From: Tubiluchus corallicola
Taxonomy: Eukaryota > Animalia > Priapulida
Assembly: GCA_030141605.1 (NCBI GenBank)
Contig: JAQGDQ010000044.1
Coordinates: 558,001 to 622,000, forward strand
Length of the DNA stretch: 64,000 nucleotides
Direction: 5' to 3'
In this document: positions 6,243 through 57,100 of the stretch, piece by piece
Numbering within the stretch: position 1 is the first letter of the stretch
Layout of the letters: each line of letters opens with the position of its first letter
Notes under the pieces: generated by a model
Seen by the model: the letters and a program-made list of their open reading frames with translations, nothing else
What the model was told of the DNA's origin: nothing
The model's database searches: none
Made by a program: the position numbers and the translations under genes

Positions 6243-6470
6243 AGAGAGGGCGAGAGAAACAAAGCGAAAAAGAGAAGAGCATGAATGAGAGAAATATGGT
6301 TTAAGAGAAACAGAGGGAGACAAACAGAAAGCCAGGGAGAGGCGAGGGCTTATAAAAATTTTCATGATACTTATTGGTGTTTCAGAAAATGAAAATCGTT
6401 GACATCTTGGAACAGAAACAAAAATAGAGTGGGTGGAAAAGTGCAGTAATATGACTGGGTTACTCACAAG

Positions 6471-9029
6471 ATGCGGCTGCAGTTAGTTTCGAACTTGGGT
6501 GAGCTTTTGGAGGTCCAAATGGAGCCCGCAGAACTCTTTGCTGACACCAGAAAACGATGCAAGAGCTTTGGAGACACAATAGGCAATGACAAGAACTTCA
6601 TGTCAAAGAAAAGACATGGCAGCCAAAGAGTAACACCTAAAGAAAGACAGAAAGCTTTGGATGATGCCTTGCTAGAAGCAGCTTACTGTGGACAGGTGGA
6701 AAATGTGAATAAGTGGATTACAGATGGAGCAAGTATCGATTGTATTTCTGAAATGCACAGCAATCGTTATGAATATGAAGAGAAAGGAGGAACTCCACTG
6801 CACATAGCTGCTGCAATGGGTCATACTGATGTGGTCAATAGACTGCTAGATATGGGTGCTAAAATAGAGAGTACCAGAAACAATGGCTGGAGACCATTAG
6901 AACTAGCTTGCAGGAAAGGCCATGCGGATGTAGTGGAAACGTTGCTAAATCGCTGTGCTAATATTCATTGTACTCAAATAAACGACGATAGTACACCATT
7001 ACACCAGGCTGCTTGGTGCGGTCAACCTGAAGTTACAGAGGTGCTCATTGAACATGGTGCCAAAGTAAATTGGCATAATCTTCAGAATACGACTCCTCTA
7101 GATGACGCTACAAAACAAGGACATACGTCCATTGTGGAAATTTTGATAAGAAATAGTGCAAGTGTAAATGTGAAGAATTATCGTGGTAATACACCACTGC
7201 ATCACGCAGCATGGGAAGGACATGTAGATGTCGTGAAACTTCTCATTAATAATGGTGCAAATATCCATGCAAAGAACTACATGCGAGAAACGCCTTTGAA
7301 TTTAGCTTGTAAATGGGGTAATATTGACGTGATAAATGTATTATGTGAAGAAATTAAAAATCAAAGTTCCTACAGTGGTAGCATCAAGCAAGTTTTGAAC
7401 ACTGTAAATGTAACTGGAAATACGAATCTTCACCTTGCTTGTATCAATGCCCATAACGTTGATACAAGCGTACAAACTGTGGTAGACCTTTTAGATAAAG
7501 GAGTTGACGCTAATATAATGAATTACAAAAACAAAACTGTGTACGATATGTGCACAAAGCCTTTAGGAAGAACACCAGTTAACAAAGCTCAAAAGAAAAT
7601 TGCTGGTGTCTTGGTTACGCACAAGTACTTTGGCAGATTTCGGGATATGCATGCGGAAGATCTTGTGAAGGATCCAGAACATGATTTTTTAATAGGAAAC
7701 AACAAGTGTTCCTTGATCGATCTTGTAAATCTTCCGGGAATAGGATTGCTGCAAGATTTTGAAGAATTTGACATTGTGCGTGAGACGCTGGAAGACCTAC
7801 TACAGACTGTTTGCAATAAGATGAATGAGATATCTCTGGTGCAGTGCAAATCATTGCTGATTGGTAGTGCATCTTGTGGTATGAAGATTGGCCAGCCCGA
7901 CGAATTTGATTATTTTATAGTAATAGAAAATCACCCACATCTTCTAGTCAATGTATTAAATGTGAATAATGTAATAGGTGCCAAAGTTTCTGAAAAGCAG
8001 CAGAATGTTTGTATGTTGCCAGTAAACCTCAAAGAACTGTTCATGCGGACGTTGTGTACCGCCGTGGCAGCTGTCCTTAATTTAAAAGTGACGAAAGAAA
8101 GAGTAATTCCACAAGACTTTCCCTTTGTTGTTGAGTGGAATAAAATCTGTACGTGTTTCAAATTGCTGGTTAAAATCAAAAGTGGGAAATTTCGTCCAGT
8201 TTCGGTTGATGTAACACCATGTATTGAAAGCATTGGGAAGCCACCGGGATCTAATATTAGCTGGCCAGTCTTCGTTAACTGCTATCATTTTATACCTAAG
8301 CCACTTGGTAAAGGTAAACAGTCGAAATTGTATTGTTCTGCATCAATAGCAGTGACCGAGTCTCTGTTCCTTTTCAGTCTTGATGACAGCATCAAAAGAG
8401 GTGGCTGTCTTGTTAAGGTTTTAGTGAAACCTGTTATTTATGGAGGCACTGTAAATAACAGAATAGCAAAAAACCTGAAAGGCCGGGCAGCAAGAAGGCA
8501 TAGCAAACTGCTCTCGGCAAAAGTTAACTTGCCAAAACTTTTTAGCGCCTTGAAGTACGAACCTGATCAACTGATCGATTCCTATATGATCAAGTTGGCT
8601 TTTATAAGAGAAGCGATAGAAAGACCTGCTGGTGAAGACTGGCTTGGAGAAGACGACCTTAAAAATCGAGCAGTGTCCATATTTTCCTACATCAAAGAGT
8701 GTTGTGACAAAGAGCTGATGCCGCACCCATTTGTGCCACACCTCAATGTCTTTCACGAACTAAAAGATAAACGGTTAAGCAACATACCGATTTTGGTTTT
8801 GGCGGGCAAGTGCGCTGCCGCAATTGCTGGTCTAGTCGAGTCGGGCAACGTTCCAACACGGTCAGGATTGATTCAACCTGACGTTGAAGAATTTGAAGCG
8901 AAACTTGTTGATGAAATAAATAACAACATGCAGGCCGACCACAAACCAGAAGCCACCGAATGGATTAGGGCCCTGTGGAAGCCAATCGTGGACACAGATG
9001 CTCAGTTATTAGTTTCTTGTGTTAGGTGA
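6471..9029 (+). CDS. Ankyrin-repeat cGAS-like receptor (ANK + Mab21/cGAS nucleotidyltransferase, cGLR)
   Basis: 852-aa uninterrupted ORF. About 8 ankyrin repeats (GGTPLHIAA, RPLELAC, TPLHQAA, TPLDDAT, GNTPLHHAA, ETPLNLAC, GNTNLHLAC). NTase signature LIGSASCGMKIGQPDEFDYFIVI, third acidic residue in VSVDVTPCI, and Mab21 C-lobe motifs IDSYMIK and MPHPFVPHLNVF. The true start could involve an upstream exon. Confidence 0.9.
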   Translation: MRLQLVSNLGELLEVQMEPAELFADTRKRCKSFGDTIGNDKNFMSKKRHGSQRVTPKERQKALDDALLEAAYCGQVENVNKWITDGASIDCISEMHSNRYEYEEKGGTPLHIAAAMGHTDVVNRLLDMGAKIESTRNNGWRPLELACRKGHADVVETLLNRCANIHCTQINDDSTPLHQAAWCGQPEVTEVLIEHGAKVNWHNLQNTTPLDDATKQGHTSIVEILIRNSASVNVKNYRGNTPLHHAAWEGHVDVVKLLINNGANIHAKNYMRETPLNLACKWGNIDVINVLCEEIKNQSSYSGSIKQVLNTVNVTGNTNLHLACINAHNVDTSVQTVVDLLDKGVDANIMNYKNKTVYDMCTKPLGRTPVNKAQKKIAGVLVTHKYFGRFRDMHAEDLVKDPEHDFLIGNNKCSLIDLVNLPGIGLLQDFEEFDIVRETLEDLLQTVCNKMNEISLVQCKSLLIGSASCGMKIGQPDEFDYFIVIENHPHLLVNVLNVNNVIGAKVSEKQQNVCMLPVNLKELFMRTLCTAVAAVLNLKVTKERVIPQDFPFVVEWNKICTCFKLLVKIKSGKFRPVSVDVTPCIESIGKPPGSNISWPVFVNCYHFIPKPLGKGKQSKLYCSASIAVTESLFLFSLDDSIKRGGCLVKVLVKPVIYGGTVNNRIAKNLKGRAARRHSKLLSAKVNLPKLFSALKYEPDQLIDSYMIKLAFIREAIERPAGEDWLGEDDLKNRAVSIFSYIKECCDKELMPHPFVPHLNVFHELKDKRLSNIPILVLAGKCAAAIAGLVESGNVPTRSGLIQPDVEEFEAKLVDEINNNMQADHKPEATEWIRALWKPIVDTDAQLLVSCVR

Positions 9030-21000: not shown

Positions 21001-23329
21001 GTAAATGACTATTAACTAGCAAAAAATTAACCGTGCTAAGACAAATGTTATGTAGAAGCTAAAAAAAATTGCAATAAAAGCTCTTGCAATATTTTATCAA
21101 CAGCTAACAGTGGAGTATCACATCAGTGCACGAAACGTCAGTGACGTGTACCAAACGACATAGACATTTTTCTCCTCAACTACACCAGAGTACAAGCTAG
21201 GCTATAATTAAAACAATATTAAACTTTTGATCGTTAACAATTGCGAAAAATATGTACGTACTAAGTAAAGTATCAAGGGGACGTAGGACAAAGAACAGTG
21301 ACATGAACAGTAACAAGCTCCACGACATGTTGAAATACGATAATAAATGTGTTAAACGTCATATTGAGTAACATTTTAGTACTAATTTCTCTATTTATCT
21401 GTGCACAGTTTCGTACTATATAAGTACTCTCTACAAATTAGTTATGAACATGTTAGAAATTGTTATAACATGGGAAAAAACCTGTTCCAACCATTTCACG
21501 CGCCAGTTAGGTTTCTCCCAAGGATCTATTTCCGGTCTACACTTTCGTACTACCAAAAATGTAATATGGATTTAAATAATTCGTAGTTAATGAGGCGATG
21601 ACAGTAGTGATTCACTTGGCTTTAAAGTTATTCATTACAATTAAGCTACAGAAGTTTACGTTTCTACTATACATGGTTAACTTTTTAATTAGCTTTAAGT
21701 AGAATAATGTACAATAATTGCCCAATCGGAAAGATATTTCCCACAAGGTGGTAAGCGAGCTCATAAAAATCCACATTCAGGCAAAATGTTTTCTTTCCTG
21801 GTCTTATAAACCTCAACAAGATCTTCTCGGTCCAAATTAACCAAATGTGGCCAAAATTGCTATATGTGCGATATATATATATATATATATATATCAATGT
21901 GATATTTGTATCCTGAAATAGTCAATTTATGCAATTTTTTTATTATAATCATGGCTAAAAGATGCCATTTGGACTTATGAGTCATGGGCAAGGCAAAAGC
22001 TTGCAGACGATCACGTGATCAGCGAAATGCAGAAAAATACGTCACCGGTATGATGTGTTCATATATTCAAAGGCAGTAGAGACTTTCGTAAATATATTTT
22101 GTTGTCCATTTGTTTAAAACTAGACTTAACTGTCTTAGTTCCTTTATAATAACGAGGCACTCATGTTTACGCATTTTGTAGTTTTTTGAAGTTTTAATTT
22201 CTTTTAAAAATAACTTCTGCCTTGCAAATCTTGTAAATGAAGAAGCACAATCAGTTTACCTGGTAAGTAGGCATTAGTTGTCTTGTTTACTAAAGAGAGT
22301 TGTTATTCCTGAATGTCGCTGAGCGTGCTACGTCACAACGGAGGCGGAGGGATAGACCAATATGCTTGACGCCAGAATTGGTCATCAGCTCAGCTACCTA
22401 AATGGCCAAACAAGATCACTAACAAGCATTTGTAATAGATAACCAGTAAAAATCCTAATCAAAACCCTCAATAAAGAAGGCTTGGGTATATGTGTGAATA
22501 GGACATGCAATTAGACGGTTACAGAAAGTTTTCCGTTGGAATACAAATTTTTTTGAATATTGAAACTTGCCAAAAGCACTCTGATGGACAGTTAACGTAC
22601 ACAGAAGATCTTAGTAATACTAGACTAAATACATAGACATAAGCACCTGATGACGATAATGATGTCCAGAGATGAACTGCACTACTGGACTGCATTGATA
22701 GCCTGGGAATGCGGTGGCCTAGTGTATGAGGTGTATGTCTTGTAAGCAAAAGGTCTCTGATTAGATTGCAAATGGTTTAATCAGCAACTCATAAACGTAA
22801 CCATTGTGCATTTCTTCCTGTAAACGAAAGTAGACTATGTATTTCCACTAATTCATTTGTAATTTCAATTGACAATAATAATATATAGAACCAGGCCAAT
22901 ATTTCTCCCGCTAACTAATGAAAAGTTGAGCATTTTTCATAACAACATTAGACGGAGCTGTGGCTAAATGTCCCGAACGTACCTGCGTTAATTAAGCTCT
23001 GCAGGGGTAAGAAATAACTTGCACGTTGATTGGGCAGTCAACGAAAATGATTGACATTACGTTAGACGTCAGTTATCACGTATGGGGGCCTACTTTTAAC
23101 AGGCTCGTAATTAATCATCCTCGAAGTTCATTAAGACAACTTGGATCAATGTAAATTATTGTGTAAGGTGCTTTATAAGTCACTCATGAATTACTTTTTA
23201 AAAATGCTGAAATTTTGGTATGGGTTATATTTACAGTAAGCTGTATAATTATTTTGGCTTTTGGAAATAGCAATCGAAGAGGCCTGCTGCTTCTCGATTT
23301 GTGGTAGGTATTATTAATGACTCTACAGA

Positions 23330-23620
23330 ACTAGGCAACTCATTGTCATCTTTATGGAAGTGTTTAACTCGGTAGATTAACTAATTCTGCTTTGTAAGTT
23401 CAACTATTAGTGTTTTAATAAAATTCTATATCTTTCATTTCTAATTACTGTACCACTATTGAACAGTTTGCTAAATTTACAGCTTAATAATTTGGTCCTT
23501 GTGATATTGTAGCTGGTGTTCTTCAAGGTTCTATCATCGGCCTTGCCCTATTTTTAGTGTGTATCAACGATATGAGTTTTGTTCGTAATTTGTTTAAGGT
23601 TATTATGTATGCTAACAAAA
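23330..23620 (+). mobile_element. CR1/L2-type LINE reverse transcriptase relic
   Basis: GVLQGSIIGLALFLVCINDM...VIMYAN at ~23515-23616, versus consensus GVPQGSILGPLLFLIYINDL...LYADD. Confidence 0.75.
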
Positions 23621-24485
23621 TGCCATCAATGCTGCTATCACTTCCCCCTGTGTCTACCCCTGCCGACACACCACTATTCTCACCTTCCTCCCGCTCATGA
23701 TCACTTTCATAACGATTGCTTGGAACTACTGATCTTAAACGCCTGATGCCAACTTTGATGTTTTTATGTTATTTGACTCACTTCGTGTCGTTAACGCTTA
23801 TTTTGGTCATTGTCTTTATGTCTGCGGATGTTTCTTTTTTTACTAGTTGGTAAGATCACCTACGAGGCTACGACTGCAGGGCCAGCTCATCCTTCCAATC
23901 TTTTTAGCCAAAATTTTAGCCACAGCCCTTTTGTTATTCATTTTTGTATTATGAGTCACGTTATAATGAAAAAGGTTAAAGTACGGAGGAGGTATTCATT
24001 TGCCAAAATTTTAGCCACTTGATATTTTCTTTAGCCGTCCTGACTAAACTTATGGCTTTTCGTTATAACGCAAGTGGGCTCTGGACAGTCTTATCTTAGA
24101 ATGGTTGATCATGATGGTTCATGCACAACTTAACTTCTGAATCCCAAACTCAAGTGCGATTACTGAATCTAAGAGTGGTAGTGTGTTGTTTTCCAGGTAA
24201 AGTCTATAGCAACAGTAGGATAGATGTTACACCTCTGGCCGATTTCCCGGGGGGGTGGGGATTTCCCCGGGGGGGTGGGGAAAAACACCCCTAAAAAAGT
24301 GCGAAAATCCACGAAAACCCCTAAAAAAGTGTGAAAACCCGTGTGAAAGTGCGCACGTGACCGAAATCGACGAAAAAGCGCGAAAAACAAAGAAAAACGA
24401 AGAAAAGGCGTGTGAAACGAGGTAAAAATTTTGCAGTTTTTCCCTCCCGCATGGCTTCATTTGGATCGAATGACCTTGAACTCTA

Positions 24486-24497
24486 GGTCACGTGACC
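24486..24497. promoter_or_regulatory. perfect E-box palindrome GGTCACGTGACC (USF/MiT-TFE type) in the element's subterminal region
   Basis: Seen directly; mirror copy at 28749-28760, second GCACGTGACC at ~24353-24362, adjacent TGACCT/AGGTCA half-sites. Function untested. Confidence 0.4.
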
Positions 24498-24560
24498 AAA
24501 GTTCATTGACCCCTGGCCCCTGGATGGCTTCTTTTTTTGACGCCCCATTTTAAACCGCGC

Positions 24561-24650
24561 GAAAGCGCGCGAAAGTGTATGAAAGCGCGTGAAAGCGTGT
24601 GAAAGCGCATGAAAGCGTGTGAAAGTGTGTGAAAGTGTGTGAAACGAGGT
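24561..24650. repeat. 10-bp subterminal tandem repeat GAAAG(C/T)G(C/T)GT, ~9 copies (mirror at ~28603-28690)
   Basis: Seen directly in both arms. Confidence 0.9.
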
Positions 24651-24945
24651 AAAAAGCGCCTCAAACGAAGAAAAAAGGGAGAAGTGGAGTTCCCGCCGAG
24701 GACTAATTAGTGCTAATTGGCGCTAATTGGGGAGCCCCTGCCACCCCTCCGCCGCATGCAAACGTCCGTCCCGGGGGTCGGGGACACCCCCCTGCAACCC
24801 ACCCCTCCGTCGCGTGGAATCGTCCACTGCAGGCAATGAGGGAAATCTTTTTCCCGCCACTCGCGCAGTGCCGGCCCTTTTCCGCGACCACTTCTCTCTC
24901 TCGGGTGCCCTCCCTTTTCCGCGACCACTTCTCTCGCGGGTTTAG

Positions 24946-24983
<38 letters not shown>

Positions 24984-25259
24984 GGAGATTTATTTCAAAT
25001 GCCAAAGTTTGATAAATGCATTTTCACAAATCTTTTTTATTGATGGATTACAGGTGTGGAGATTTATTTCAAACGCCAAAGTTCGATAAATGCATTTTCA
25101 CAAATCTTTTTTTATTGATGGATTACAAAAAATTTTTTTACATTTTTTATGCAAAATACATACGTGCTAAAACTAGATTATTATTATTATGGTGACATGA
25201 TAGTTCTACATTTTACGTTTTTTTCGCAAATTACACAAATTATGCAAATTACAATAAAA

Positions 25260-25856
25260 CTACACTAATGACGACGAGCGAGTACATGGATTGTCGTCGT
25301 CGTCGTCGATGTGATACAGACAAACGTTATTGATGTTAAAAACGAATTCGTTAAATTTGCGGAAAACGCGAGAGAAATCCTCGACCTTTGTCCCGCCCAT
25401 CATTATTATGCTTCCGGTGTGAAAAATGTTCAGAGTAATTTGCTCGCATTTGCAAGTTAGTTTGGGAAATAGTTCCACTTCGTAAAACACTTCTCTAAAA
25501 GAATGCGTCGAAGGACGAACGAGTTCTTCGTACAGTGCACCCAGTTTCAATCTGCAGTGAATTTTGGCTCTGGCGGTGATGGTGCGAATTGCGATCCCGT
25601 CGGCGGGCGTCAGTCCGAGACCTTTCGAGAGTTCTTCGATCGCATTGCGTAGTACTTTTTCCTCCGAAAAACCGTTGGCCACCACGGAGCCGGAGGCAAA
25701 AATCATCAGCGTCCCGCCCAGTCGCTTTAGCAGAACCATTTGCGGTTTCCTTTCGTAGCGTCTTCCGCCCGTTCTCCGCCAGAGTTCGTTCAGATCGAAG
25801 CGCTGCGAGAACGAAGCAGTGGCGACGATGTTGACCGTTTGGACTGACACGTTAGA
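25260..25856 (-). CDS. TBP-fold (TATA-binding protein-like) protein, left-arm copy; 5' end unresolved
   Basis: Two TBP repeats: VQTVNIVATASFSQRFDLNEL...TLMIFASGSVVANG and IRTITARAKI..RLKLGAL...FYEVELFPKLTCK..ITLNIFHTGSIIMMGG. The frame is open up to 26294 but has no in-frame ATG before the domain. Confidence 0.8.
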   Translation of the reverse strand, partial: SNVSVQTVNIVATASFSQRFDLNELWRRTGGRRYERKPQMVLLKRLGGTLMIFASGSVVANGFSEEKVLRNAIEELSKGLGLTPADGIAIRTITARAKIHCRLKLGALYEELVRPSTHSFREVFYEVELFPKLTCKCEQITLNIFHTGSIIMMGGTKVEDFSRVFRKFNEFVFNINNVCLYHIDDDDDNPCTRSSSLV

Positions 25857-26302
25857 ACGTAGTTGGCAATCGTTTCGGACGCCCGAATCGCTCTGCCTCG
25901 CCCGTTGCTCTGCCAACGTATGGCGGGCGGCGGGTGCTCGCTTTCCAGATCTTCTACGCGTATGACCACGCGATTTTTGGGGAGATGTTTTTTGACGAAA
26001 TCGTACATCTCTGCTCCCTTGACGTAGGTGATCCTGCCTCTGGTGGTCTGTCGTAGAATGTTTTCCAATTCTGCGTACTCGATCATTCCCTCCTCCCACG
26101 AGATGCCGTGTATGTGTCTGATTAGGTAGTTGTAGGTGGATCGCTTGTGCTGGGGAACGCGATTCCAGGGGTGGGGCGGTTTGAAGGTGTAGTTGTGATA
26201 TATGCCGGTCTCTATTTCGCGAATTACCAAATTTTTGACCAGGTATTCTTCTTTTCCGCACTGGAAGGCATCTACGGTGAGAACTATGCTCGATTCAGAC
26301 AT
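25790..26302 (-). CDS. DnaQ/DEDD-like nuclease-fold protein (170 aa), left-arm copy
   Basis: ATG-initiated. Motifs VLTVDAF..YLVKNL..YTFKPPHPW..YL..HIHGISWEEG.I.Y..L..IL..TYVKG match a family I recall from invertebrate Maverick/Polinton-like insertions (xDxQGF..KEL..FKPP..HGL.W..G..YVKG). Not searched. Confidence 0.65.
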   Translation of the reverse strand: MSESSIVLTVDAFQCGKEEYLVKNLVIREIETGIYHNYTFKPPHPWNRVPQHKRSTYNYLIRHIHGISWEEGMIEYAELENILRQTTRGRITYVKGAEMYDFVKKHLPKNRVVIRVEDLESEHPPPAIRWQSNGRGRAIRASETIANYVLTCQSKRSTSSPLLRSRSASI

Positions 26303-26744
26303 CTGTGACGATGGGGGGTCCTTCTACGCCGTCGGCAACGAGTTTTCCTTCGATGACGATTTGCTTGTGATTGTTCACAAATTCCAGAGACTTGATTTTT
26401 TCGAAGGTGTATTTTTTTATGACCTTGTTGGGGGCACTCTTGCGTGCGTTGGCGCGCTTGCCGCCCCGCGTCCCCGCTTGTTGTTGTTGCTTGCGAGGAA
26501 CGGTGGTTAGAGGTTGTTTGAAATCCTGCAAGAGAAGAAGAACAATAGTTATAGTATTGTTGTTCGCTAACGACAACTAGGCATTTTTGATGAGCCATTC
26601 TTTCAGATTTCTAGGTTTTTTGGGGGCAGTGGGGGTGAGCACCATCGGCGGCGATGGAGGGGGCGTCGCGGAAATTACGAGTTTGTCTTCTTCTTTATCA
26701 TCATCTTTCTCCTCTTCCTCCTCCTCCTCTCGAAAGATGTCCAT
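26295..26744 (-). CDS. putative spliced small protein (acidic N-terminus, basic C-terminus), exons 26744-26679 and 26525-26295
   Basis: ATG at 26744 (MDIFREEEEEEEKDDDKEEDKL), donor CTC|GTAATT at 26678, strong acceptor TTGTTCTTCTTCTCTTGCAG at 26526. The join is in frame to DFKQPLTT...PPIVTDV*. The unspliced frame ends at 26577. Only the 3' part is present in the right arm (26835-27041). Confidence 0.45.
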
Positions 26745-27033
26745 TCGTGTCCCTCTCTCGCGTCTGCTTTTACACGGAGGGGCGGAGGTGCCGACGTCCG
26801 TGTCTGGCAGACTTCTTTCCGTCCAGTTTGTCCAGTTCCTCGCAAGCAACAACAACAAGCGGGGACGCGGGGCGGCAAGCGCGCCAACGCACGCAAGAGT
26901 GCCCCCAACAAGGTCATAAAAAAATACACCTTCGAAAAAATCAAGTCTCTGGAATTTGTGAACAATCACAAGCAAATCGTCATCGAAGGAAAACTCGTTG
27001 CCGACGGCGTAGAAGGACCCCCCATCGTCACAG

Positions 27034-27546
27034 ATGTCTGAATCGAGCATAGTTCTCACCGTAGATGCCTTCCAGTGCGGAAAAGAAGAATACCTGGTCA
27101 AAAATTTGGTAATTCGCGAAATAGAGACCGGCATATATCACAACTACACCTTCAAACCGCCCCACCCCTGGAATCGTGTTCCCCAGCACAAGCGATCCAC
27201 CTACAACTACCTAATCAGACACATACACGGCATCTCGTGGGAGGAGGGAATGATCGAGTACGCAGAATTGGAAAACATTCTACGACAGACCACCAGAGGC
27301 AGGATCACCTACGTCAAGGGAGCAGAGATGTACGATTTCGTCAAAAAACATCTCCCCAAAAATCGCGTGGTCATACGCGTAGAGGATCTGGAAAGCGACC
27401 ACCCGCCGCCCGCCATACGTTGGCAGAGCAACGGACGAGGCAGAGCGGTTCGGGCGTCCGAAACGATTGCCAACTATGTTCTAACGTGTCAGTCCAAACG
27501 GTCAACATCGTCGCCACGGCTTCGTTCTCGCAGCGCTTCGATCTGA
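27034..27546 (+). CDS. DnaQ/DEDD-like nuclease-fold protein (170 aa), right-arm copy
   Basis: Mirror of 25790-26302 with 3 aa differences (E/D, I/V, L/R). Start overlaps the upstream stop (ATGTCTGA). Confidence 0.65.
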   Translation: MSESSIVLTVDAFQCGKEEYLVKNLVIREIETGIYHNYTFKPPHPWNRVPQHKRSTYNYLIRHIHGISWEEGMIEYAELENILRQTTRGRITYVKGAEMYDFVKKHLPKNRVVIRVEDLESDHPPPAIRWQSNGRGRAVRASETIANYVLTCQSKRSTSSPRLRSRSASI

Positions 27547-28076
27547 ACGAACTCCGGCGGAGAACGGGCGGAAGACGCTACGAAAGAAAACCGCAAATGC
27601 TTCTGCTAAAGCGACTGGGCGGGACGCTGATGATTTTTGCCTCCGGCTCCGTGGTGGCCAACGGTTTTTCGGAGGAAAAAGTACTACGCAATGCGATCGA
27701 AGAACTCTCGAAAGGTCTCGGACTGACGCCCGCCGACGGGATCGCAATTCGCACCATCACCGCCAGAGCCAAAATTCGCTGCAGATTGAAACTGGGTGCA
27801 CTGTACGAAGAACTCGTTCGTCCTTCGACGCATTCTTTTAGAGAAGTGTTTTACGAAGTGGAACTATTTCCCAAACTAACTTGCAAATGCGAGCAAATTA
27901 CTCTGAACATTTTTCACACCGGAAGCATAATAATGATGGGCGGGACAAAGGTCGAGGATTTCTCTCACGTTTTCCGCAAATTTAACGAATTCGTTTTTAA
28001 CAACAATAACGTTTGTCTGTATCACATCGACGACGACGACGACAATCCATGTACTCGCTCGTCGTCATTAGTGTAG
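27480..28076 (+). CDS. TBP-fold protein, right-arm copy; 5' end unresolved
   Basis: Mirror of 25260-25856 with 5 aa differences, intact frame. AATAAA at ~28225. Confidence 0.8.
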   Translation, partial: SNVSVQTVNIVATASFSQRFDLNELRRRTGGRRYERKPQMLLLKRLGGTLMIFASGSVVANGFSEEKVLRNAIEELSKGLGLTPADGIAIRTITARAKIRCRLKLGALYEELVRPSTHSFREVFYEVELFPKLTCKCEQITLNIFHTGSIIMMGGTKVEDFSHVFRKFNEFVFNNNNVCLYHIDDDDDNPCTRSSSLV

Positions 28077-29492
28077 TTTTACTGTAATTTGCATAATTTG
28101 TGTAATTTGCGAAAAAAACGTAAAATGTAGAACTATCACGTCACCATAATAATAATAATAATCTAGTTTTAGCACGTATGTATTTTGCATAAAAAAATGT
28201 AAAAAAAATTTTTTGTAATCCATCAATAAAAAAGATTTGTGAAAATGCATTTATCGAACTTTGGCGTTTGAAATAAATCTCCACACACACACACACACAC
28301 ACACATCTAAACCCGCGAGAGAAGTGGTCGCGGAAAAGGGAGGGCACCCGAGAGAGAGAAGTGGTCGCGGAAAAGGGCCGGCACTGCGCGAGTGGGGGGG
28401 GGGAAGATTTCCCTCATTGCCTGCAATGGACGATTCCACGTGACGGAGGGGTGGGTTGCAGGGGGGGTGTCCCCGACCCCCGGGACGGACGTTTGCACGC
28501 GGCGGAGGGGTGGCAGGGGCTCGCCAATTAGCGCCAATTAGCACTAATTAGTCCTCGGCGGGAACTCCACTTCTCCCTTTTTCTTCGTTTGAGGCGCTTT
28601 TTACCTCGTTTCACACACTTTCACACGCTTTCGCGCACTTTCACACACTTTCACGCGCTTTCACACACTTTCACATGCTTTCGCGCGGTTTTGCGCGGTT
28701 TAAAATGGGGTGTCAAAAAAAGAAGCCATCCAGGGGTCAATGAACTTTGGTCACGTGACCTAGAGTTCAAGGTCATTCGATCCAAATGAAGCCATGCGGG
28801 AGGGAAAAACTGCAAAATTTTTACCTCGTTTCACACGCCTTTTCTTCGTTTTTCTTTGTTTTTCGCGCTTTTTCGTCGATTTCGGTCACGTGCGCACTTT
28901 CACACGGGTTTTCACACTTTTTTAGGGGTTTTCGCGGATTTTCGCACTTTTTTAGGGGTGTTTTTCCCCACCCCCCCGGGCAGCCAAAGGGGGGGTGGGG
29001 AAATCGGCCAGAGGCAAAACATCTATACTACTGAGGCCGAAATACCTGGGAAAGTTAAAGTTGTCCAAAAGTCCTGTAAGACCTTCACGACCTGGTAGAA
29101 CCAGTACTTGACAATAATTATTGAAATTATCTCTTTTACTGCATTTGTCACAGACTGGCAATGTTTAAAGCATGTGACGCAAATTGTGGCCTTCAACTAT
29201 AGGTGACAGTAGGAAATTGTAATAAAACCCATCGACCTGTTTTTGTGACTTGATTATAGCTTTTTAATATAAGGCTTAGTTCTAAAAATCCTAACGTTGA
29301 TTGGGATAATATGTACAAAACATCCAGGTTACAGAATTCTTGAGATTCGAACACCAAACTATCACTGTCCGTTTGTTTTGGATTTTTTTTTGTAAAAAAT
29401 AAACCAAAACAGGTACACCAGGGGAAAGTAATTTTTGTTATTATAATGGTTATTCTCGCGGTGATTTCCAAATAGTTGTTTTCTTTTTATAG

Positions 29493-43595
<14,103 letters not shown>

Positions 43596-45314: not shown

Positions 45315-47663
45315 AGTGTGCATGTCACGTTTAATTTTAGGTTATTGAGGCAAACATCACTTAGACTAGTACAGCAGTTTTTATTCGTTAATTTATAAAA
45401 GAGGTATATTTAAACTTTAGTCAATTATATTCAAAACATTAACGCAGTTACGTACTTAAGGCCTAAACTAATTGTAAGAGAGAAATTTTTAGACGATGCC
45501 ACTGCATACATAAACCATAGGGAATACAGTAATATCAAATTTAATTATCGTCTTTTTATTCAGATTTTCAATTTAGAATAAACACTTGGCACTCACGACC
45601 AAGTGGTCACTAAGCTAACTGTGTTAAACCAATGACACACGGCCGCCAAAACACACAAACCCGCCGACGTCGGCCATGATAACTCTCCTTAACAGGGCTG
45701 TCTCTCCCATTAATGCAAACCAGGCAGTTGCGCAGGGCACCAAATTTTGGTTGGCGTCAAATTCTGGAAGTAATTATTTCATTTTGAAGTTTAGCTTAAG
45801 TAATAACATAGCGTATGTGTAATAACATAGCTTAAGTAATAACATTGTGTATGTGTAATAACATAGCTTAAGTAATAAAATTGTGTATGTGTAATACCAT
45901 AGCTTAAGTAATAACATTGTGTATGTGTAACATAGATTAAGTAATAGCATTGTGTATGTGTAGTAATATAGCTTAAGTAATAACATTGTGTATGTGTAAT
46001 AACATAGCTTAAGTAATAACATTGTGTATGTGTAATAATATAGCTTAAGTAATAACATTGTGTATGTGTAATAACATAGCTTAAGTAATAACATTGTGTA
46101 TGTGTAATAATATAGCTTAAGTAATAACATAGCGTATGTGTAATAACATAGCTTAAGTAATAACATTGTGTATGTGTAATAATATAGCTTAAGTAATAAC
46201 ATAGCGTATGTGTAATAACATAGCTTAAGTAATAACATTGTGTATGTGTAATAATATAGTTTAAGTAATAACATTGTGTATGTGTAATAATATAGCTTAA
46301 GTAATAACATTGTGTATGTGTAATAACATAGATTAAGTAATAACATTGTGTATGTGTAATAACATAGATTAAGTAATAACATTGTGTATGTGTAATAACA
46401 TAGCTTAAGTAACAACATAGCGTATGTGTAATTCTTTAAGTGCGCAACACTAATCAAACGAAACGAACCATAATCTTTCTGTCGAAATGGATAATTCATC
46501 GATGCTAGGAAGTTAATTCCTACAGCAAAACACTTTCTAGTTTAGTTTTATTTGTATTTCTAAGATTACATCATTCCACTCAGACATTTCTTGCGCGTGA
46601 TTTTGCAAGCATTTTCTATTCTATGCATCGAGCAGCCTCGCTACGTAAGTGCTTATTGTAATGACCCTTACGTTAATAAACACTTCTTTCTATAGCATTT
46701 GTCTAATTATGCCAAATAAACTTACAAGAGTCGAAGTGTTTAGGAGCGGAATTATACAGGAAATGAAAAGCAAGAAAGCTAGCGGGTGACGGGTGGCGGG
46801 TGGCGACAATGAACAGCAGAAAGATTCGCCAGTGAAGCATTTGCAACAAAACCAGAGTTATGAAGCAGATGAAGCTAGTGAAATGGATGTACACGAAGAA
46901 AGAAGTTAAAGTTTCAAGGATTTCCTGACGAATAGCTGAGGGAAAATCTAAACAAGAAGAGCTGAAATCACAGAAATTTGATTGCTCCTGTAATAGGGTT
47001 ATAAAGTCAGTTTCAAATTTAGTCAACACAATACAAGCTGTAGATAGGTAATTGACCACACTTAATTAGTTCACTATCACACATGCATAAGTCTAACACA
47101 CAGGTACCATTATACTTTATTATAATATCATACAAGAAAAATTCAAATTTGCTGATGCTGTGTGAACCGGGGTGGAAGGGGTTGACCGTTGTTCAAATTC
47201 CGTCAACACAGCACAAACTGTAGATCTATCACACATGCATAAGCCTAACGCACAGGTAGCATTATACTTTACTATAATATTATACAAGAAAAATTCAATT
47301 TTGCGGGTGCTGTGTGGACCGTGGAAGGGGTTGACCGTTGAAGAGGGGGCGCTAAAACTAATTTTCCCTAAGGCCTACTAAGGAAAATTGTGTTAGCCAT
47401 GACCCCTTAGATCTGAATAAAAAGACGATACTTCAATTTGATATTACTGTACACCACATGGTTTATGTATGTATTTTAAATTTCTCTCATGCAATTAGCT
47501 TAGGTCTTAAGTACGTAATTGCGTTAATGTTTCGAACAGACATCAAAAATAATTCACTAAGAGTTTAAATATACCTGTTTTATAAATTAATAAATAAATA
47601 CTGCTGTACTAGTCCAAGTGATTTTTGCCTCTGTAATTTAAAATTAAACGTGATATGCACACT
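45315..47663. repeat. ~250-bp diverged inverted repeat pair (45315-45565 / 47410-47663) enclosing ~1.85 kb
   Basis: For example AGTGTGCATGTCACGTTTAATTTT pairs with AAAATTAAACGTGATATGCACACT, and TATCGTCTTTTTATTCAGAT pairs with ATCTGAATAAAAAGACGATA. Confidence 0.75.
45792..46431. repeat. 36-bp minisatellite (AGCTTAAGTAATAACATTGTGTATGTGTAATAACAT), ~18 copies
   Basis: Tandem array seen directly. Confidence 0.95.
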
Positions 47664-51151: not shown

Positions 51152-54100
51152 TACTCATGGGATTGAATTAAGAACGCCCGCGTTCACACGTGTCTGTGTT
51201 GTCTAGTCATTGGTTTGAATTCCAAAGGTTTCTGGTTCAAATATATTGTGTTCACTTTACCAATAACTGATAATCTCGAATTTAAACTTATAACTAATTA
51301 GCTAATTATTTTATTTAATTACTTTCCAGAAGTTCCAAGTCATCTTCATGACTACGATTCCTACGTGCGGTTCTGCTTTTACCCGGGGGAGGCAGCTCGA
51401 CGTCCCGCGCCAGCCACGTTCTTACCAGAAGACATCGACCCCTCAACTTGCACGCACATCGTGTTTGGATACGCCACAATATTGGATAATGAGCTGACGG
51501 CCAAGTCAGAGTCAGATTTAGGTAAGTTGCTTGTTGCAAAGTGCTTTTGCCAATATGGTGTTATTGTTTACCATCCAAAGAAATTTCTGTGCTCATTGCG
51601 ATGATGATGATGATTATGGCGACGACGACAACGATGATGATTCAGCTTTAAGTAGAACAGACAAACAAAGCTGCAATGAGATTTTTTATTGCCCACGATA
51701 AATTACGAATTACAACTACATAACAGAGATTAGTCACACAGGGCAACTACACGTAGCATTTTTTAATTTTTTTATATGACTGTCTTTCGTATCGAACACG
51801 CAACCTCCTGTACGGAGCTCGGACGTTTTACCTATCAGGCTACGCAGCCACTGTATTTGCCTAAGTGTTTGAAGAGAGACAGTACGACGTGACTATTAAA
51901 CGAATACACAACATTGTCGTTCTGGCTATTGAGATTGCAAGCTGAGGTAAAAAGGTATCGAGGTTTAGGGACTGAAGTCGTGGACACTGGGTAGTGGGTT
52001 TTGAGTTTAAACAGGTACTGTGGGTAGAAATACCAAAAAACGTCAGGTCTATTTTATACACTCCCGAAATACTTTTCAGATTGCACGCAAAGTGTTAAAA
52101 TTACTTGAAGATCACCAGTCGAATATTCATTCACGAAAAAAGGTTTATAAATAGAAGTAAATAAGTATAATCATTTTACTAGTTTTACAATCTGTTCACA
52201 AACCTACTAAATTGACAATATGATAAAAATCATGGTTTTTTGGTTCTTTTCTTAGAGAAGCGGTACGAAATCTCGACTTCACACTTAATCGCATTTAGAT
52301 ATAGATCTAGTAACTAATTTAATCTACAGCCAAAGGGAAGAAATAAAATGAGGTCTGCAACATCTTGATGGCTCTGCTTGTTAAATGGTTTCAGCTTATC
52401 GTAGCCCCGAATGCACCACTCATATTTTACGCCTAGCACACGAACGCAGCGCACCCTGTGCTTAACTCCCCAGCCTGTGGTATCATTGATGACTTTCTTT
52501 TCTGGCTAATTATCACATTGGACACAATTCAATTCAATTCAATAATTTTTTATTTGGCTGATTTGCAACACAAAACATTAAACTATATACGTAATGATAG
52601 CAACAATGCGATAACAAAAACAGGTATGGTTTGAAAATTCTACAGAGTAGGATCGTGAACTTTCCAGACTCACCCCGAGACATGTCTTCTGTTCCTGAAA
52701 TGGTAACTCGCGTAATTTCGTAACTTTGAAGCTCGTAGCTCTAATTTTAAATGCTTTTACTCACTTTCTGCATATAGTATTTTTTAGCACTTCTAGTTTT
52801 AGTCTAGGTAAATTTTAATTGTATGTTTTTGTGGCTTTTATGCTGAAATAAATAGTACAATGAATGGATCAATCATAAATCAATCATTCTGACATGCTCT
52901 TCTCCTCACTTCTTAGCTTAACAAACCCAAATGAGGTTCAGTTTTAGTTATTTCAATGGCAAATAAAAAAAATTGATTTAATTTTGCTTTAATTTTGTTG
53001 CGTTTTTCCAACTTTTTTGTTAAATGATAAAGCACATAAAAATTGACGATATAAAACACATTGAAAAATCCCTGGTAAAGACCTACTTAACAATAACCAA
53101 GGTACACGGTGCAAGAAAGCAACAAACTGAACAAAGACCTGATCAAGTAAAAGTGCATTCAAAGCTGTGGTACAAGGAAAAAACCTAATGAAGCAATGAG
53201 TATTGAAGTAACTTTCCACAAATTTTATATTTTGTCAGAATTTCAAGAGGCCATTTATGCACTTTAACCCATGTCACAAAAATGATGTGTCGCATTCATT
53301 GTTAAACCAAATTTTGAGCTAAACGTTTTTTAAAACATCGTTATTGCATTGTTTAAGACGCTGGTTGGGCTTTAAATTGCTATTTGCAGTAATACCTAAC
53401 TAAAAAATCCGTTTGCACTAACTGTTTCTGTCGAAGCATTTAATAAAATTCTTTTTTAGAATTGTTTCAGAGAATCCTGGCCCTAAAAAACCAAAATCCA
53501 GATCTGAAGGTACTGCTAGCAGTAGGCGGTTGGGCAGAAGGTTCACAGCGTTTCAGCAATATGGCGTGGTCTCTCAACTCACGTCTTACCTTTGTTAATT
53601 CTGTACTTCATTTCCTGAGACAATATGGTTTCGATGGACTAAATGTCGACTGGGAGTTTCCGGGCTACGAACGAAGAGGTGGACATCCTTCAGATAGAGA
53701 CAATTTACCACTGCTCTTAGAGGTATTGATATAAAAATATTAGTAGTATTTGACAGGCTATAACACTCTAACTGCTTTGCTCTTGAAATTCATCTTTTCA
53801 AGCATTTTAAAGCAGGTTGTTAGTTCTGCTAGTTGACCGTCGGTTCTTCGTGTCTATATGGTGTAGTTTTGGCTTGAACAAATTAATGCAAAGTGAGGAC
53901 TCTTCTTACCCAATATCTCTGTGTCAATTTTAAATTTATGTACAATTGTGTGTTTAATTTTTAGGAGCTTCACAAGATCTTTACGATGGAAGCCAAGTTT
54001 TCCGGCAACAATCAACTAATCTTGGCCACCACGATACCGGGCGCTAAATACTGGATAGATTTGGGTTACGACATCCCGAAAATCTCTTCGTGCGTTTATA

Positions 54101-57100
54101 AATACGTTTCTTATTTTTGATGAAAATAATTGGTACTAATAACGCTATTTAAAAGTTGAATTATCAGTGAATGATAAATTATTATGTAGAAGATAACCGC
54201 CCTGCAGGTCAAGTGACTAACCTCAAAATTGTCCTTGAAATCTATCATCTACTACCATTAATCCTTGCAAAGCGCCTTGTGTAAAAAACATCTCTGGTTA
54301 TTTGTGCTCAAAGAGAAAAAGCTTCTCATAATATTCTTGATTTCTAAATGCAGGTTTAGTGATTATTTACCAATGATGACTTATCACCTTAATGGAATAT
54401 GGAACAAACACGCTGGTCATGGAAGTCCTTTGCATCCTCACTCCTACGATGTGGACAAAACTGCGAATATTGTAAGTGAAGAGGTCGCCTTTGAAATATC
54501 TTTGTTTTTAGTAATTTCAGTTAAGTGTAAGACAACTTGGAAAATCACACACAAGCAAGGGCAGCATTTTTGTGTCATGTGTGTGAAAGGGATAAATTAT
54601 TGGAAAATCACGGAAGCACTTTTGAGACTAATAGCTATGAAGATGCGGTATGATCGTTTTCCTTAGATAACCTAGTAATCTTCCATGCCATATAGTGTTC
54701 CTTGGTTTTTAGGGTACTTGGATAACCTAATAATCTTCCATGCCATGTAGTGTTCCTTAGTTTTTAGTGTACTTGGATAACCTAATAATCTTCCATGCCA
54801 TGTAGTGTTCCTTAGTTTTTAGTGTACTTAGATAATCTAATAATCTTCCATGCCATATAATGTTCCTTAGTTTTTAGTGTACTTAGATAACCTAATAATC
54901 TTCCATGCCATGTAGTGTTCCTTAGTTTTTAGGGTACTTAAATAACCTAGTAATCTTTCATGTCATATAGCGTTCCTTAGTTTTTAGTGTACTTAGATAA
55001 TCTAATAATCTTCCATGCCATGTAATGTTCCTTAGTTTTTAGTGTACTTAGATAATCTAATAATCTTCCATGCCATGTAATGTTCCTTAGTTTTTAGCGT
55101 ACTTAGATAATCTAATAATCTTCCATGCCATATAATGTTCTTTAGTTTTTAGTGTACTTAGATAATCTAATAATCTTCCATGCCATGTAGTGTTCCTTAG
55201 TTTTTAGTGTACTTAGATAATCTATTAATCTTCCATGCCATGTAGTGTTGCTTAGTTTTTAGTGTACTTAGATAATCTAATAATCTTCCATGCCATGTAG
55301 TGTTCCTTAGTTTTTAGTGTATTTAGATAATCTAATAATCTTCCATGCCATATAACGTTCCTTAGTTTTTAGTGTACTTAGACAATCTAATAATCTTCCA
55401 TGCCATATAGCGTTCCTTAGTTTTTAGTGTACTTAGATAATTTAATAATCTTCCATGCCATATAGCGTTCCTTAGTTTTTAGTGTACTTAGATAACCTAA
55501 ATCCTATTATCGTTGCTTTTTTTTAAGGAATTCATCGTCCAATATTGGATAAACCATGGAACGGATCCAAAGAAATTGCTGCTGGGAATTCCTCTTTTTG
55601 GACAGACTTACACTCTCCAAGACCCATCTGACCACATGTTAAATGCACCTATTGTAGGAAGTGGCAAGGCTGGACACATGTATCAACAGGAAGGAATGAT
55701 GCCGTACTACGAGGTTTGTGCCCACAAAACTTTGCTTGAGCTTATTCTTATTAAGATTTTCGGCTTCTTGTGGATTGGTAAACACCAATCTTATTACTGC
55801 TTAAGTGATAGATTTAGCCAACTGAACAACTGATAATGCTTCTTGCGAATATTTTTTGAATGACTTACAGATCTACGTCTTCACTCATAATAAATGAATA
55901 AATTACGACAAAATTTGCAGATTATAAAGATTCGCAAATCTGTTTCGGAAAATTCACAAACATTTTAATGGTACCAATGTGCGGCATTTGTCACATTTGC
56001 AAATAAATAAAAATTGTGGTTTATTTCTATTAATTTTAATGACTTGCATTACTTAAATCTTTTGTAGGTGTGTTCTGAAGTGATGCCAAGCTATGAAAGC
56101 TTTTGGGTTGAAGATCAGCTTGTTCCATTTGCTTACAAAAATGACCAATGGATTGGCTACGAGGATTCAAGGAGTATTAGTGAAAAGGTAACAATCCTTT
56201 GCAGTATATTTGGACAAGTTCTAGAACTTCCATCACCAAACTTTCACTAATTTTTTTGTACGTATTGTTGACCACAGTTAGCATTCAACTGGTTACTGAT
56301 CACCAACTTTTGTAATTTTTGCAACGCATTTGCATGTTATCAACGGGCCTCATTTTTCCCTGACTGACAATAGGGTTCGTCTAACTAGTTTTTGTTTGTA
56401 GGTCAAGTATGTGATCGACAATCACCTTGGAGGCGTTATGGTCTGGGCATTAGGTTTTGATGATTTTAAAGGTCATTGTAATCATGGAAGGAATCCTCTG
56501 TTGACCACAATAAAAACAGAATTGCTGGAAGTGACACAGGTGACCTATGTAATCCACACAAAATCTTCAAATGTTTTACAGCAGTTGCCGCACAAGTATG
56601 AAACGGGTGCAGTAGAACCACATTATGCAACATCACATCACGGTGAGACGTACAGGCGTCATACTGTGCAACATCGGCGACACTACGTACAACATGTATC
56701 CCATCAGCAAGAAGGACAACACCCTGTTCATGGATATGATGAGCACCATGCCTACCATGGGCACAGTCGCAGTCGCAGAGTGGAGTCATCATATTCACGG
56801 CACGGGAATTATCACGATGCGTATCCTCATCAAACACAAGGAAGTTACATACCATATCAAGAACACGAAATGATTCCCCACGAAACGTACAATTACGAAA
56901 CATATCCACACAGAGATGCATATGAAGTCTACCCTAGCAACAGCTATCCTTATGACGCTCACAATTATGTAATATATCTGCCGGAGCAGTATGACGTGCA
57001 CCCTCATCAAACACATGAGAATTACGGTGCATATTCAGCACATGGACAGTATGATGATTTCGAAGTACATCCTCGTGAAAGTTCTGAAATATATCCAGTA

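Follow-up and report, generated by a model that had tools for sequence, protein, structure and literature searches.

A palindromic element with a TBP-fold gene in Tubiluchus corallicola, read as a putative defective end-piece of a Polinton/Maverick

The analysis of a 64,000-nucleotide stretch of the priapulid Tubiluchus corallicola genome (GCA_030141605.1, contig JAQGDQ010000044.1, positions 558,001 to 622,000; hereafter the window) reveals a palindromic element of 4819 bp at window positions 24214-29032, in which two arms carry the same small gene cassette, including a gene with the fold of the TATA-binding protein (TBP). The arms (24214-26501 and 26835-29032, about 2.2-2.3 kb each) pair as reverse complements at 91.8% over 2316 columns, gaps counted, and, genes included, make up 93% of the element, which bears out the CpG-rich island with reverse-complement arms described in an earlier note made from the letters alone. 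Its composition differs from that of its surroundings, with a GC content of 0.50-0.54 in the coding and outer parts versus 0.37 in the near flanks, and an observed/expected CpG ratio of 1.28 versus 0.78-0.81. Both ends open with AGTAG, as the note had seen, and these termini are the limits of the palindrome; the right end holds a perfect (AGT)2 and the left end five of its six letters, a Polinton-type motif. Each arm reads outward from a start-less piece of open reading frame 1 (ORF1) through a 170-aa ORF to the TBP frame, and the features, from left to right, are as follows.

24214-24946, plus strand: left outer terminal region, probably the true terminal inverted repeat (TIR) of an inferred parent, with the AGTAG end, a G-rich tip, 10-bp and 37-bp tandem arrays, E-boxes and nuclear-receptor-like half-sites
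24947-25259, minus strand: AT-rich, downstream of the left copy of TBP; contains (TG)n and, in the left arm alone, a tandem duplication of 74 bp
25260-25853, minus strand: left TBP-fold gene copy, two repeats, no in-frame ATG before strand 1
25790-26302, minus strand: left 170-aa DEDD/Maelstrom-like ORF, with an acceptor-like AG directly ahead of its ATG
26295-26525, minus strand: left ORF1 piece, 76 codons without ATG, a polypyrimidine-CAG acceptor-like site ahead, its stop overlapping the ATG of the next gene
26493-26501, plus strand: first half of a 9-bp perfect inverted repeat, at the arm switch
26502-26834, no strand assigned: unique 333-bp spacer, whose minus strand holds the acidic, Pro-rich C-terminal end of a truncated ORF ending at 26577
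26835-26843, plus strand: second half of the 9-bp inverted repeat, the putative point of fold-back or deletion
26835-27041, plus strand: right ORF1 copy, truncated, cut shorter than the left copy
27034-27546, plus strand: right 170-aa DEDD/Maelstrom-like ORF, no Pfam or NCBIfam match
27483-28076, plus strand: right TBP-fold gene copy (protein P0001), first in-frame ATG at 27597
28077-28305, plus strand: AT-rich 3' region; AATAAA occurs at 28225 and 28272 and is followed by (CA)n
28306-29032, minus strand: right outer terminal region, with a perfect (ACT)2 end and flanks without a target-site duplication (TSD)

The two-repeat TBP fold named in the earlier note is upheld by profile, model and fold search alike. 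P0001 matches PF00352 in two stretches at 78.3 bits (cutoff 22.9, E 4e-22), and its predicted structure (pLDDT 91, pTM 0.83) has the pseudo-symmetric saddle fold. When this model was used for a fold search of the PDB, the top 44 ranks listed were all TBPs (best E 4e-11), and yeast TBP aligned at E 4e-11, TM 0.78/0.84 and rmsd 2.0. In canonical TBP, the DNA-contact positions are four intercalating Phe and paired Asn on the concave face, while the acids of the C-terminal stirrup contact TFIIB. Compared with cellular TBP (PF00352; PDB 1tbp_A and 1cdw_A), P0001 shares the saddle, three of the four intercalating Phe positions, the repeat-1 Asn and Val (and hence one of the two paired Asn) and the stirrup acids, with the ExELFP stirrup kept as E125, E127, L128, F129 and P130. 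It differs in its overall sequence, being 23-26% identical to three cellular-type eukaryotic TBPs and one archaeal-type TBP, in a shortened first stirrup with which the first Phe is lost, in repeat 2, where Asn, Val and Leu are lost and Thr stands in place of the first two, in the replacement of both Thr positions and in a helix-2 basic patch that is mostly gone. P0001 therefore departs from the canonical TATA-binding set on its concave face while retaining the TFIIB stirrup motif.

With its TFIIB stirrup motif retained and its DNA face altered, P0001 is more readily seen as a private promoter factor than as an antagonist, and we lean towards predicting the former from these residues. A decoy or antagonist of the host machinery is an unlikely function, a structural DNA-binding role slightly less likely again, and a TBP without any function in this family is improbable. 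The earlier note had proposed that the protein might redirect or antagonise host initiation; antagonism is the less favoured of the two roles weighed here. TBP production from the present copy, which lacks the interior upstream of the spacer, is probably low or nil.

The start of the TBP gene is unusual. No in-frame ATG lies ahead of strand 1 in either arm, and the first one (27597) is 38 codons into the frame; the closest homologue, P0002 (59-60% identity), is also called from the matching Met, which hints weakly that the unusual start may be shared by the lineage. A frameshift peculiar to this copy, between the DEDD-like gene and the TBP gene, was considered and ruled out, as the dominant contig of sequencing run X2 (753 nt, depth 536) crosses the gene junction with 0 gaps; two low-depth contigs, about 85-87% alike, likewise cross it with 0 gaps. 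An overprinted 148-codon N-terminal extension of the TBP was also considered. This upstream frame is open in only 9/5000 and 18/5000 resamples, a seemingly significant result, but the extension is unsupported, as the TBP gene shows the same avoidance of stops (4 versus 9.6 expected); the whole 344-codon frame used as a search query returned 0 of 2075 candidates. Between the arms, the TBP carries five replacement and two silent changes, a small count that would be compatible with neutral decay.

The other two genes of the cassette are less well defined. The three outward ORFs per arm that the earlier note had listed are present as frames, but only the 170-aa ORF begins with ATG, ORF1 being start-less and the TBP frame lacking an in-frame ATG at its expected start. 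Acceptor-like sites are found at 26526, ahead of ORF1, and at 26303, directly ahead of the ATG of the 170-aa ORF, and two AATAAA signals follow the TBP gene; because of these acceptor-like sites and the shared AATAAA signals, the cassette would probably be expressed in the parent as spliced, 3'-coterminal mRNAs. The DEDD-like nuclease label given to the 170-aa ORF found no confirmation in Pfam, NCBIfam or the fold search. In the Atlas this ORF scored 0.96 for unnamed arthropod hypothetical clusters, 0.86 for Maelstrom and 0.78 for a 3'-5' exoribonuclease, and a homologue search returned 0 of 52 candidates. Its single-sequence model (pLDDT 42) is too poor for a test; it gives the order beta3-alpha-alpha-beta-alpha-beta, with a best Z of 3.5 to unrelated folds. 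In this single sequence, for which there are no homologues to align, an Asp closes strand 1 with no Glu two residues on, and a DEDD nuclease is a candidate assignment only, a lead for further work. The Atlas recognition of ORF1 (1590) was uninformative. On the minus strand at 26284-26598, a second open frame runs over ORF1, with 104 aa from its ATG and an Arg-rich, protamine-like C-terminus, and competes with the ORF1 frame.

The relationships of the TBP were investigated by searching representative, viral and metagenomic sequences. A search of 1.84 billion representatives gave 112 matches, of which one was close (P0002) and the rest were short divergent, cellular or archaeal TBPs at 23-38% identity. 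The viral contigs held no close relative of P0001 or of the DEDD-like ORF; a search of them with alignment A2 found four loci, the one read (L001) being giant-virus-like, an end-motif scan gave at least 120 matches, of which the 80 listed resemble chance interior matches, and two motif scans gave 0 matches. By scanning metagenomes with alignment A3, we identified 20 TBP loci, which include near-copies and represent about two lineages. ORFs were listed for 15 of them, L014-L018 (1.0-1.5 kb) being translated only around the TBP match, and a Polinton core gene lies beside or near the TBP in 13 of these 15 (13/20 overall), with none seen in L008 and L009. The Polinton context was found in all seven loci tested with Pfam (L005, L006, L012, L019, L021, L022 and L024) and judged by eye in the other six. 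Among the tested loci, rve and DNA_pol_B_2 matched above the cutoff, ATPase did so in L006 and L022, and protease and capsid stayed below it; the presumed ORFs for pPolB (the polymerase) and capsid in L006 had no Pfam match. The earlier note did not count TBP as a regular Polinton gene; in these loci, Polintons do carry TBPs of this kind.

Two further genes accompany the metagenomic TBPs. In L005-L011 and L013, a gene for a PC4-like coactivator (PF02229; E 4e-21 in L006, for example L006 1302-1793) lies directly upstream of the TBP, so that this Polinton lineage carries two basal-transcription genes. In the second lineage (L012, L021, L023 and L024), a parvovirus-type PLA2-like gene (PF08398; for example L024 3994-4398) is found between the polymerase side and the TBP.

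The earlier note had also stated that relatives with an already annotated TBP gene would count against its reading, and this is partly the case, since a TBP label appears in the figure legend (Fig. 5) of MELD virus genomes with an adintovirus-like PolB in the part of PMC8502044 available to us. The window TBP resembles the MELD TBP and the Polinton TBPs of L005-L013 and L019-L024 in being a minimal two-repeat TBP with ExE[LI]FP kept and repeat-2 Asn/Val/Leu changed to Thr/Ser/Asn-type residues, and the first Phe is also missing in L012, L019 and L024. It differs from Polinton TBPs in sequence (20-28% identity to the five loci compared), in adjoining a DEDD/Maelstrom-like ORF at the element end rather than an ATPase or integrase gene, and in its missing start codon. 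Of the literature, the available portion of PMC8097293 contains no occurrence of TBP and the main text of the coral polintovirus paper none of TBP or TATA; no study devoted to Polinton TBPs or palindromic Polinton derivatives was found in a search that covered subscription journals thinly.

The kinship suggested by these contexts was examined by phylogeny, as the earlier note had proposed, and the outcome agrees in part. In a quick tree of 124 rows (omitting P0005, P0114 and L001), a set of 35 rows (SH-aLRT 91) unites the window TBP with every one of the 12 metagenomic element TBPs used. In a 47-row tree, with group labels assigned by eye except for P0006, the window TBP and seven Polinton TBPs are set apart from 21 cellular-type rows (94/83, not starred); its grouping with cellular eukaryotic TBPs is nevertheless not rejected in an approximately unbiased (AU) test (p 0.123). 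Individual residues add to this picture: 10/10 non-cellular rows of the residue comparison have Thr/Ser in place of the repeat-2 Asn and Val and lack the Leu of that repeat, and four positions of the DNA face are changed alike in the window TBP and the Polinton TBPs, which retain the ExE[LI]FP stirrup. The shared repeat-2 changes support kinship with Polinton TBPs independently of branch lengths. A non-Polinton origin, as a DNA transposon of the foldback type or as part of a different endogenous DNA virus, with a captured TBP gene, would suit the indecisive AU test, the lack of core genes and TSD, and the fact that giant viruses also carry TBP-fold genes; we regard it as very improbable in view of the (AGT)2 end, the residues shared with Polinton TBPs, the Polinton contexts of the relatives and the mere 6-22% identity of giant-virus TBPs in the fold search.

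The ends and outer regions can be compared with published Polintons/Mavericks (animal adintoviruses; PMC8097293, PMC8502044 and bioRxiv 10.1101/2023.08.22.554363, each in the portion available to us). The commonest Maverick end motif is (AGT)2//(ACT)2, with (AG)3//(CT)3 as an alternative (PMC8097293), and TIRs are given as 46-1447 bp (PMC8097293) or 100-1500 bp (bioRxiv 10.1101/2023.08.22.554363). The window element shares the (AGT)2-type ends, an outer non-coding region of about 730 bp that alone would fit the TIR range, the position of accessory genes close to the ends and the multi-copy state in an animal genome. It differs in that its inverted arms contain genes, that its length of 4819 bp and its arms of 2.2-2.3 kb lie outside the range of autonomous Polintons (13-25 kb with a 5-8 bp TSD; PMC8097293, bioRxiv 10.1101/2023.08.22.554363), and that it is without pPolB, integrase, ATPase, protease, capsid and TSD. 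Non-autonomous Polintons are apparently absent from one lizard, according to the accessible part of PMC3014272.

Within the outer regions, five RGKTCA nuclear-receptor-like half-sites occur in 42 bp at 24471-24512 (mirrored near 28735-28775), where 1.6 are expected and 3/300 shuffles reach this number. A CACGTG E-box lies among them, with a second E-box at 24354, and homeodomain-like CTAATT sites are repeated at 24703-24730. From these motifs, the half-site and E-box cluster in the TIR could possibly act as a hormone-responsive enhancer.

The arms themselves argue for a single origin. Their inner part (25177-26501) differs by 15 substitutions in 1325 bp (about 99% alike; 11 transitions, six at CpG), and the outer part without the tandem arrays and tip differs at 9/545 positions, while the 10-bp array differs at 15/100 and the tip at 9/44. 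This even divergence outside the arrays and tip is what would be expected of one duplication event with later drift, the likely history of the arms. A fold-back artefact of sequencing was considered and is unlikely, given these 15 substitutions between the arms and the end of the palindrome at the element's termini.

The arm switch offers the most direct view of how the palindrome could have arisen. Positions 26835-26843 are a perfect inverted copy of 26493-26501 and span exactly from the start of the arm alignment (26835) to the base at which contigs depart (26843); the chance of a 9-bp match at a fixed junction is about 4 in 100,000. Within 24941-26843 there are 13 such inverted 9-mer pairs, so fold-back substrates are common. 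Contigs that follow the spacer to 26843 and then continue into other sequence number five in X1, one in X2 and three in X4 among the contigs listed, from two studies, and an X2 contig of depth 1026 runs unbroken over 26493-26541, so the junction of the window is not the main family form in X2. We consider it somewhat probable that the element is a defective palindromic end-piece derivative of a Polinton/Maverick, born by strand fold-back on the 9-bp inverted repeat. The parent would be a Polinton with the outer ~730 bp as its TIR and the ORF1/DEDD-like/TBP accessory cassette read toward that end. During strand-displacement replication of this linear parent, a nascent or broken strand would end at 26843, its end (26835-26843) would anneal to 26493-26501, and extension back to the terminus would yield a molecule with a terminus at both ends and without core genes. 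The polymerase and integrase of a helper element could then handle the two-ended palindrome and bring it into the chromosome. In the parent, the altered concave face of the TBP may bind a variant TATA-like word while its ExELFP stirrup recruits host TFIIB and Pol II, and transcription through the whole present copy would give a 2.2-kb hairpin.

The same product and the same junction would result from a parent whose inverted arms were already very long and included genes (a Polinton satellite of palindromic form, or an element with TIRs above 2.3 kb) and which lost its interior by a spacer-to-opposite-arm deletion at the 9-bp microhomology. We judge this unlikely: the published TIRs given above are shorter, the summed depth of both arms in X1 and X4 is about that of the spacer and not double (depths being no copy numbers), and a TSD is predicted where none is present.

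These junctions and depths come from contigs of four sequencing runs aligned to 22500-31000, in which X1 and X4 are one sample and X1, X2 and X4 represent two studies; run X5, without coverage of the element or its flanks, adds no information, and contig depths are not copy numbers. In X1, X2 and X4 the element is covered far more deeply than the flanks (depth 536 for the dominant X2 TBP contig versus 17 for a flank contig; element bins summing to 14,000-62,000 versus 155-166 for flank contigs in X4), which indicates a multi-copy family and agrees with the earlier expectation of other copies. Within 26000-28200, the X2 depth over the TBP part is exceeded several-fold by that over the spacer and the 5' portion of the 170-aa ORF, a pattern that X1 and X4 do not show; many X2 relatives may lack TBP or carry a more divergent one. 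In X4, a contig of flank depth aligns from exactly 29033 on, preceded by 81 unaligned letters, which hints that the insertion is polymorphic; the longest record among those listed in this run has 195,318 nt. Two short interspersed repeats at 22770-23071 and about 30270-30581 occur in the runs at very high copy with many different flanks.

This coverage bears on a third possibility, that the arms are the same end of two opposite insertions, which a deletion at the 9-bp microhomology brought together either in the chromosome itself or during assembly. Such a joint best accounts for the missing TSD; it would also suit the private differences of each arm (over one stretch of 753 positions, the right arm has 4 differences from the dominant X2 contig and 13 from the other arm) and the X4 contig whose alignment stops exactly at 29033, with no joint to the left flank among the rows listed. 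Against it, either two inverted insertions must have landed close to each other or a misjoin must by coincidence lie on a 9-bp inverted match, and the letter common to both arms at 26275/27061 is in the minority or missing in X1, X2 and X4; the empty site may moreover lie outside the joints listed. We hold this possibility to be doubtful, a little more so than the long-armed parent.

Several results weigh against the derivation of the element from a Polinton by fold-back. No contig among those listed bridges the window's own junction at 26843. A TSD, which the earlier note had anticipated, is missing: lengths of 4-8 bp were compared at the element ends with at most two matching positions at each, and integrase insertion should leave one. 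No ORF in 24214-29032 has the size or kind of pPolB or an rve integrase, and ATPase, protease and major and minor capsid genes are likewise absent there (ORF list and Pfam). The likely parent with pPolB, integrase and capsid is inferred only. The DEDD-like ORF, ORF1 and the terminal region have no match in any of L001-L024, so the Polinton link rests on the end motif and TBP kinship, and the TBP of the relatives adjoins an ATPase, integrase or PLA2-like gene and not a terminus. The AU result given above points the same way. The earlier note's claim that this is one end of a larger Polinton-like element accordingly keeps the 9-bp microhomology and the contigs leaving at 26843 in its favour, and lacks a TSD and core genes.

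Comparable products are known from other linear replicons, in the snap-back genomes of adeno-associated virus (AAV) and the hairpin and palindromic plasmids of the yeast pGKL system, and maize Mu killer provides a further parallel. The window element resembles these in having one end inverted and duplicated on either side of a spacer that is not palindromic and has a short inverted repeat at its borders, with a hairpin RNA if transcribed, and differs in being chromosomal, Polinton-like and known from its sequence alone.

The surroundings of the element are those of a host chromosome. Pfam matches were obtained for 7 of the 148 window ORFs scanned, and the neighbouring genes, namely an ankyrin/Mab-21 ORF, exons of a DH-PH RhoGEF and a GH18-CBM14 chitinase, are those of an animal host. 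The first is an uninterrupted ORF of 859 codons at 6450-9029 (plus strand), with ankyrin repeats and a Mab-21 C-terminal domain, which we take to be a cGAS-like nucleotidyltransferase architecture. The RhoGEF exons lie at 37676-40776 (plus strand), 8.6 kb downstream of the element, which may or may not sit in that transcription unit. At 53447-59554 (plus strand), GH18 chitinase exons lead through a long linker of 14-residue His/Glu/Tyr/Pro repeats (a 42-bp array) to CBM14. A 102-bp inverted pair (45315-45416 and 47562-47663, 89%, 2.1 kb apart) surrounds a 36-bp tandem array and is possibly a non-autonomous DNA transposon. The flanks of the element have no second copy within the window.

The weight of these findings is limited by the TBP label already present in one figure legend (PMC8502044, in its available part) and by the probably defective state of the present copy. 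Their broader meaning concerns how Polintons control their genes, an open question for elements without an RNA polymerase of their own. A speculative extension, which we consider unlikely as a whole, is that Polintons shed fold-back genomes resembling defective-interfering ones via short internal inverted repeats, that such genomes, once integrated, can found families of giant palindromic satellites, and that this locus is such a birth with a legible junction, whose 2.2-kb hairpin, if transcribed, would be a Mu-killer-type silencer of a virus-like family whose rewired TBP redirects host TFIIB and Pol II to non-TATA viral promoters. The minimal TBP lineage, with its kept TFIIB stirrup and changed DNA face, makes the promoter-factor role directly testable, and the junction suggests a specific way, open to checking, in which a linear, protein-primed element could become a palindromic derivative.

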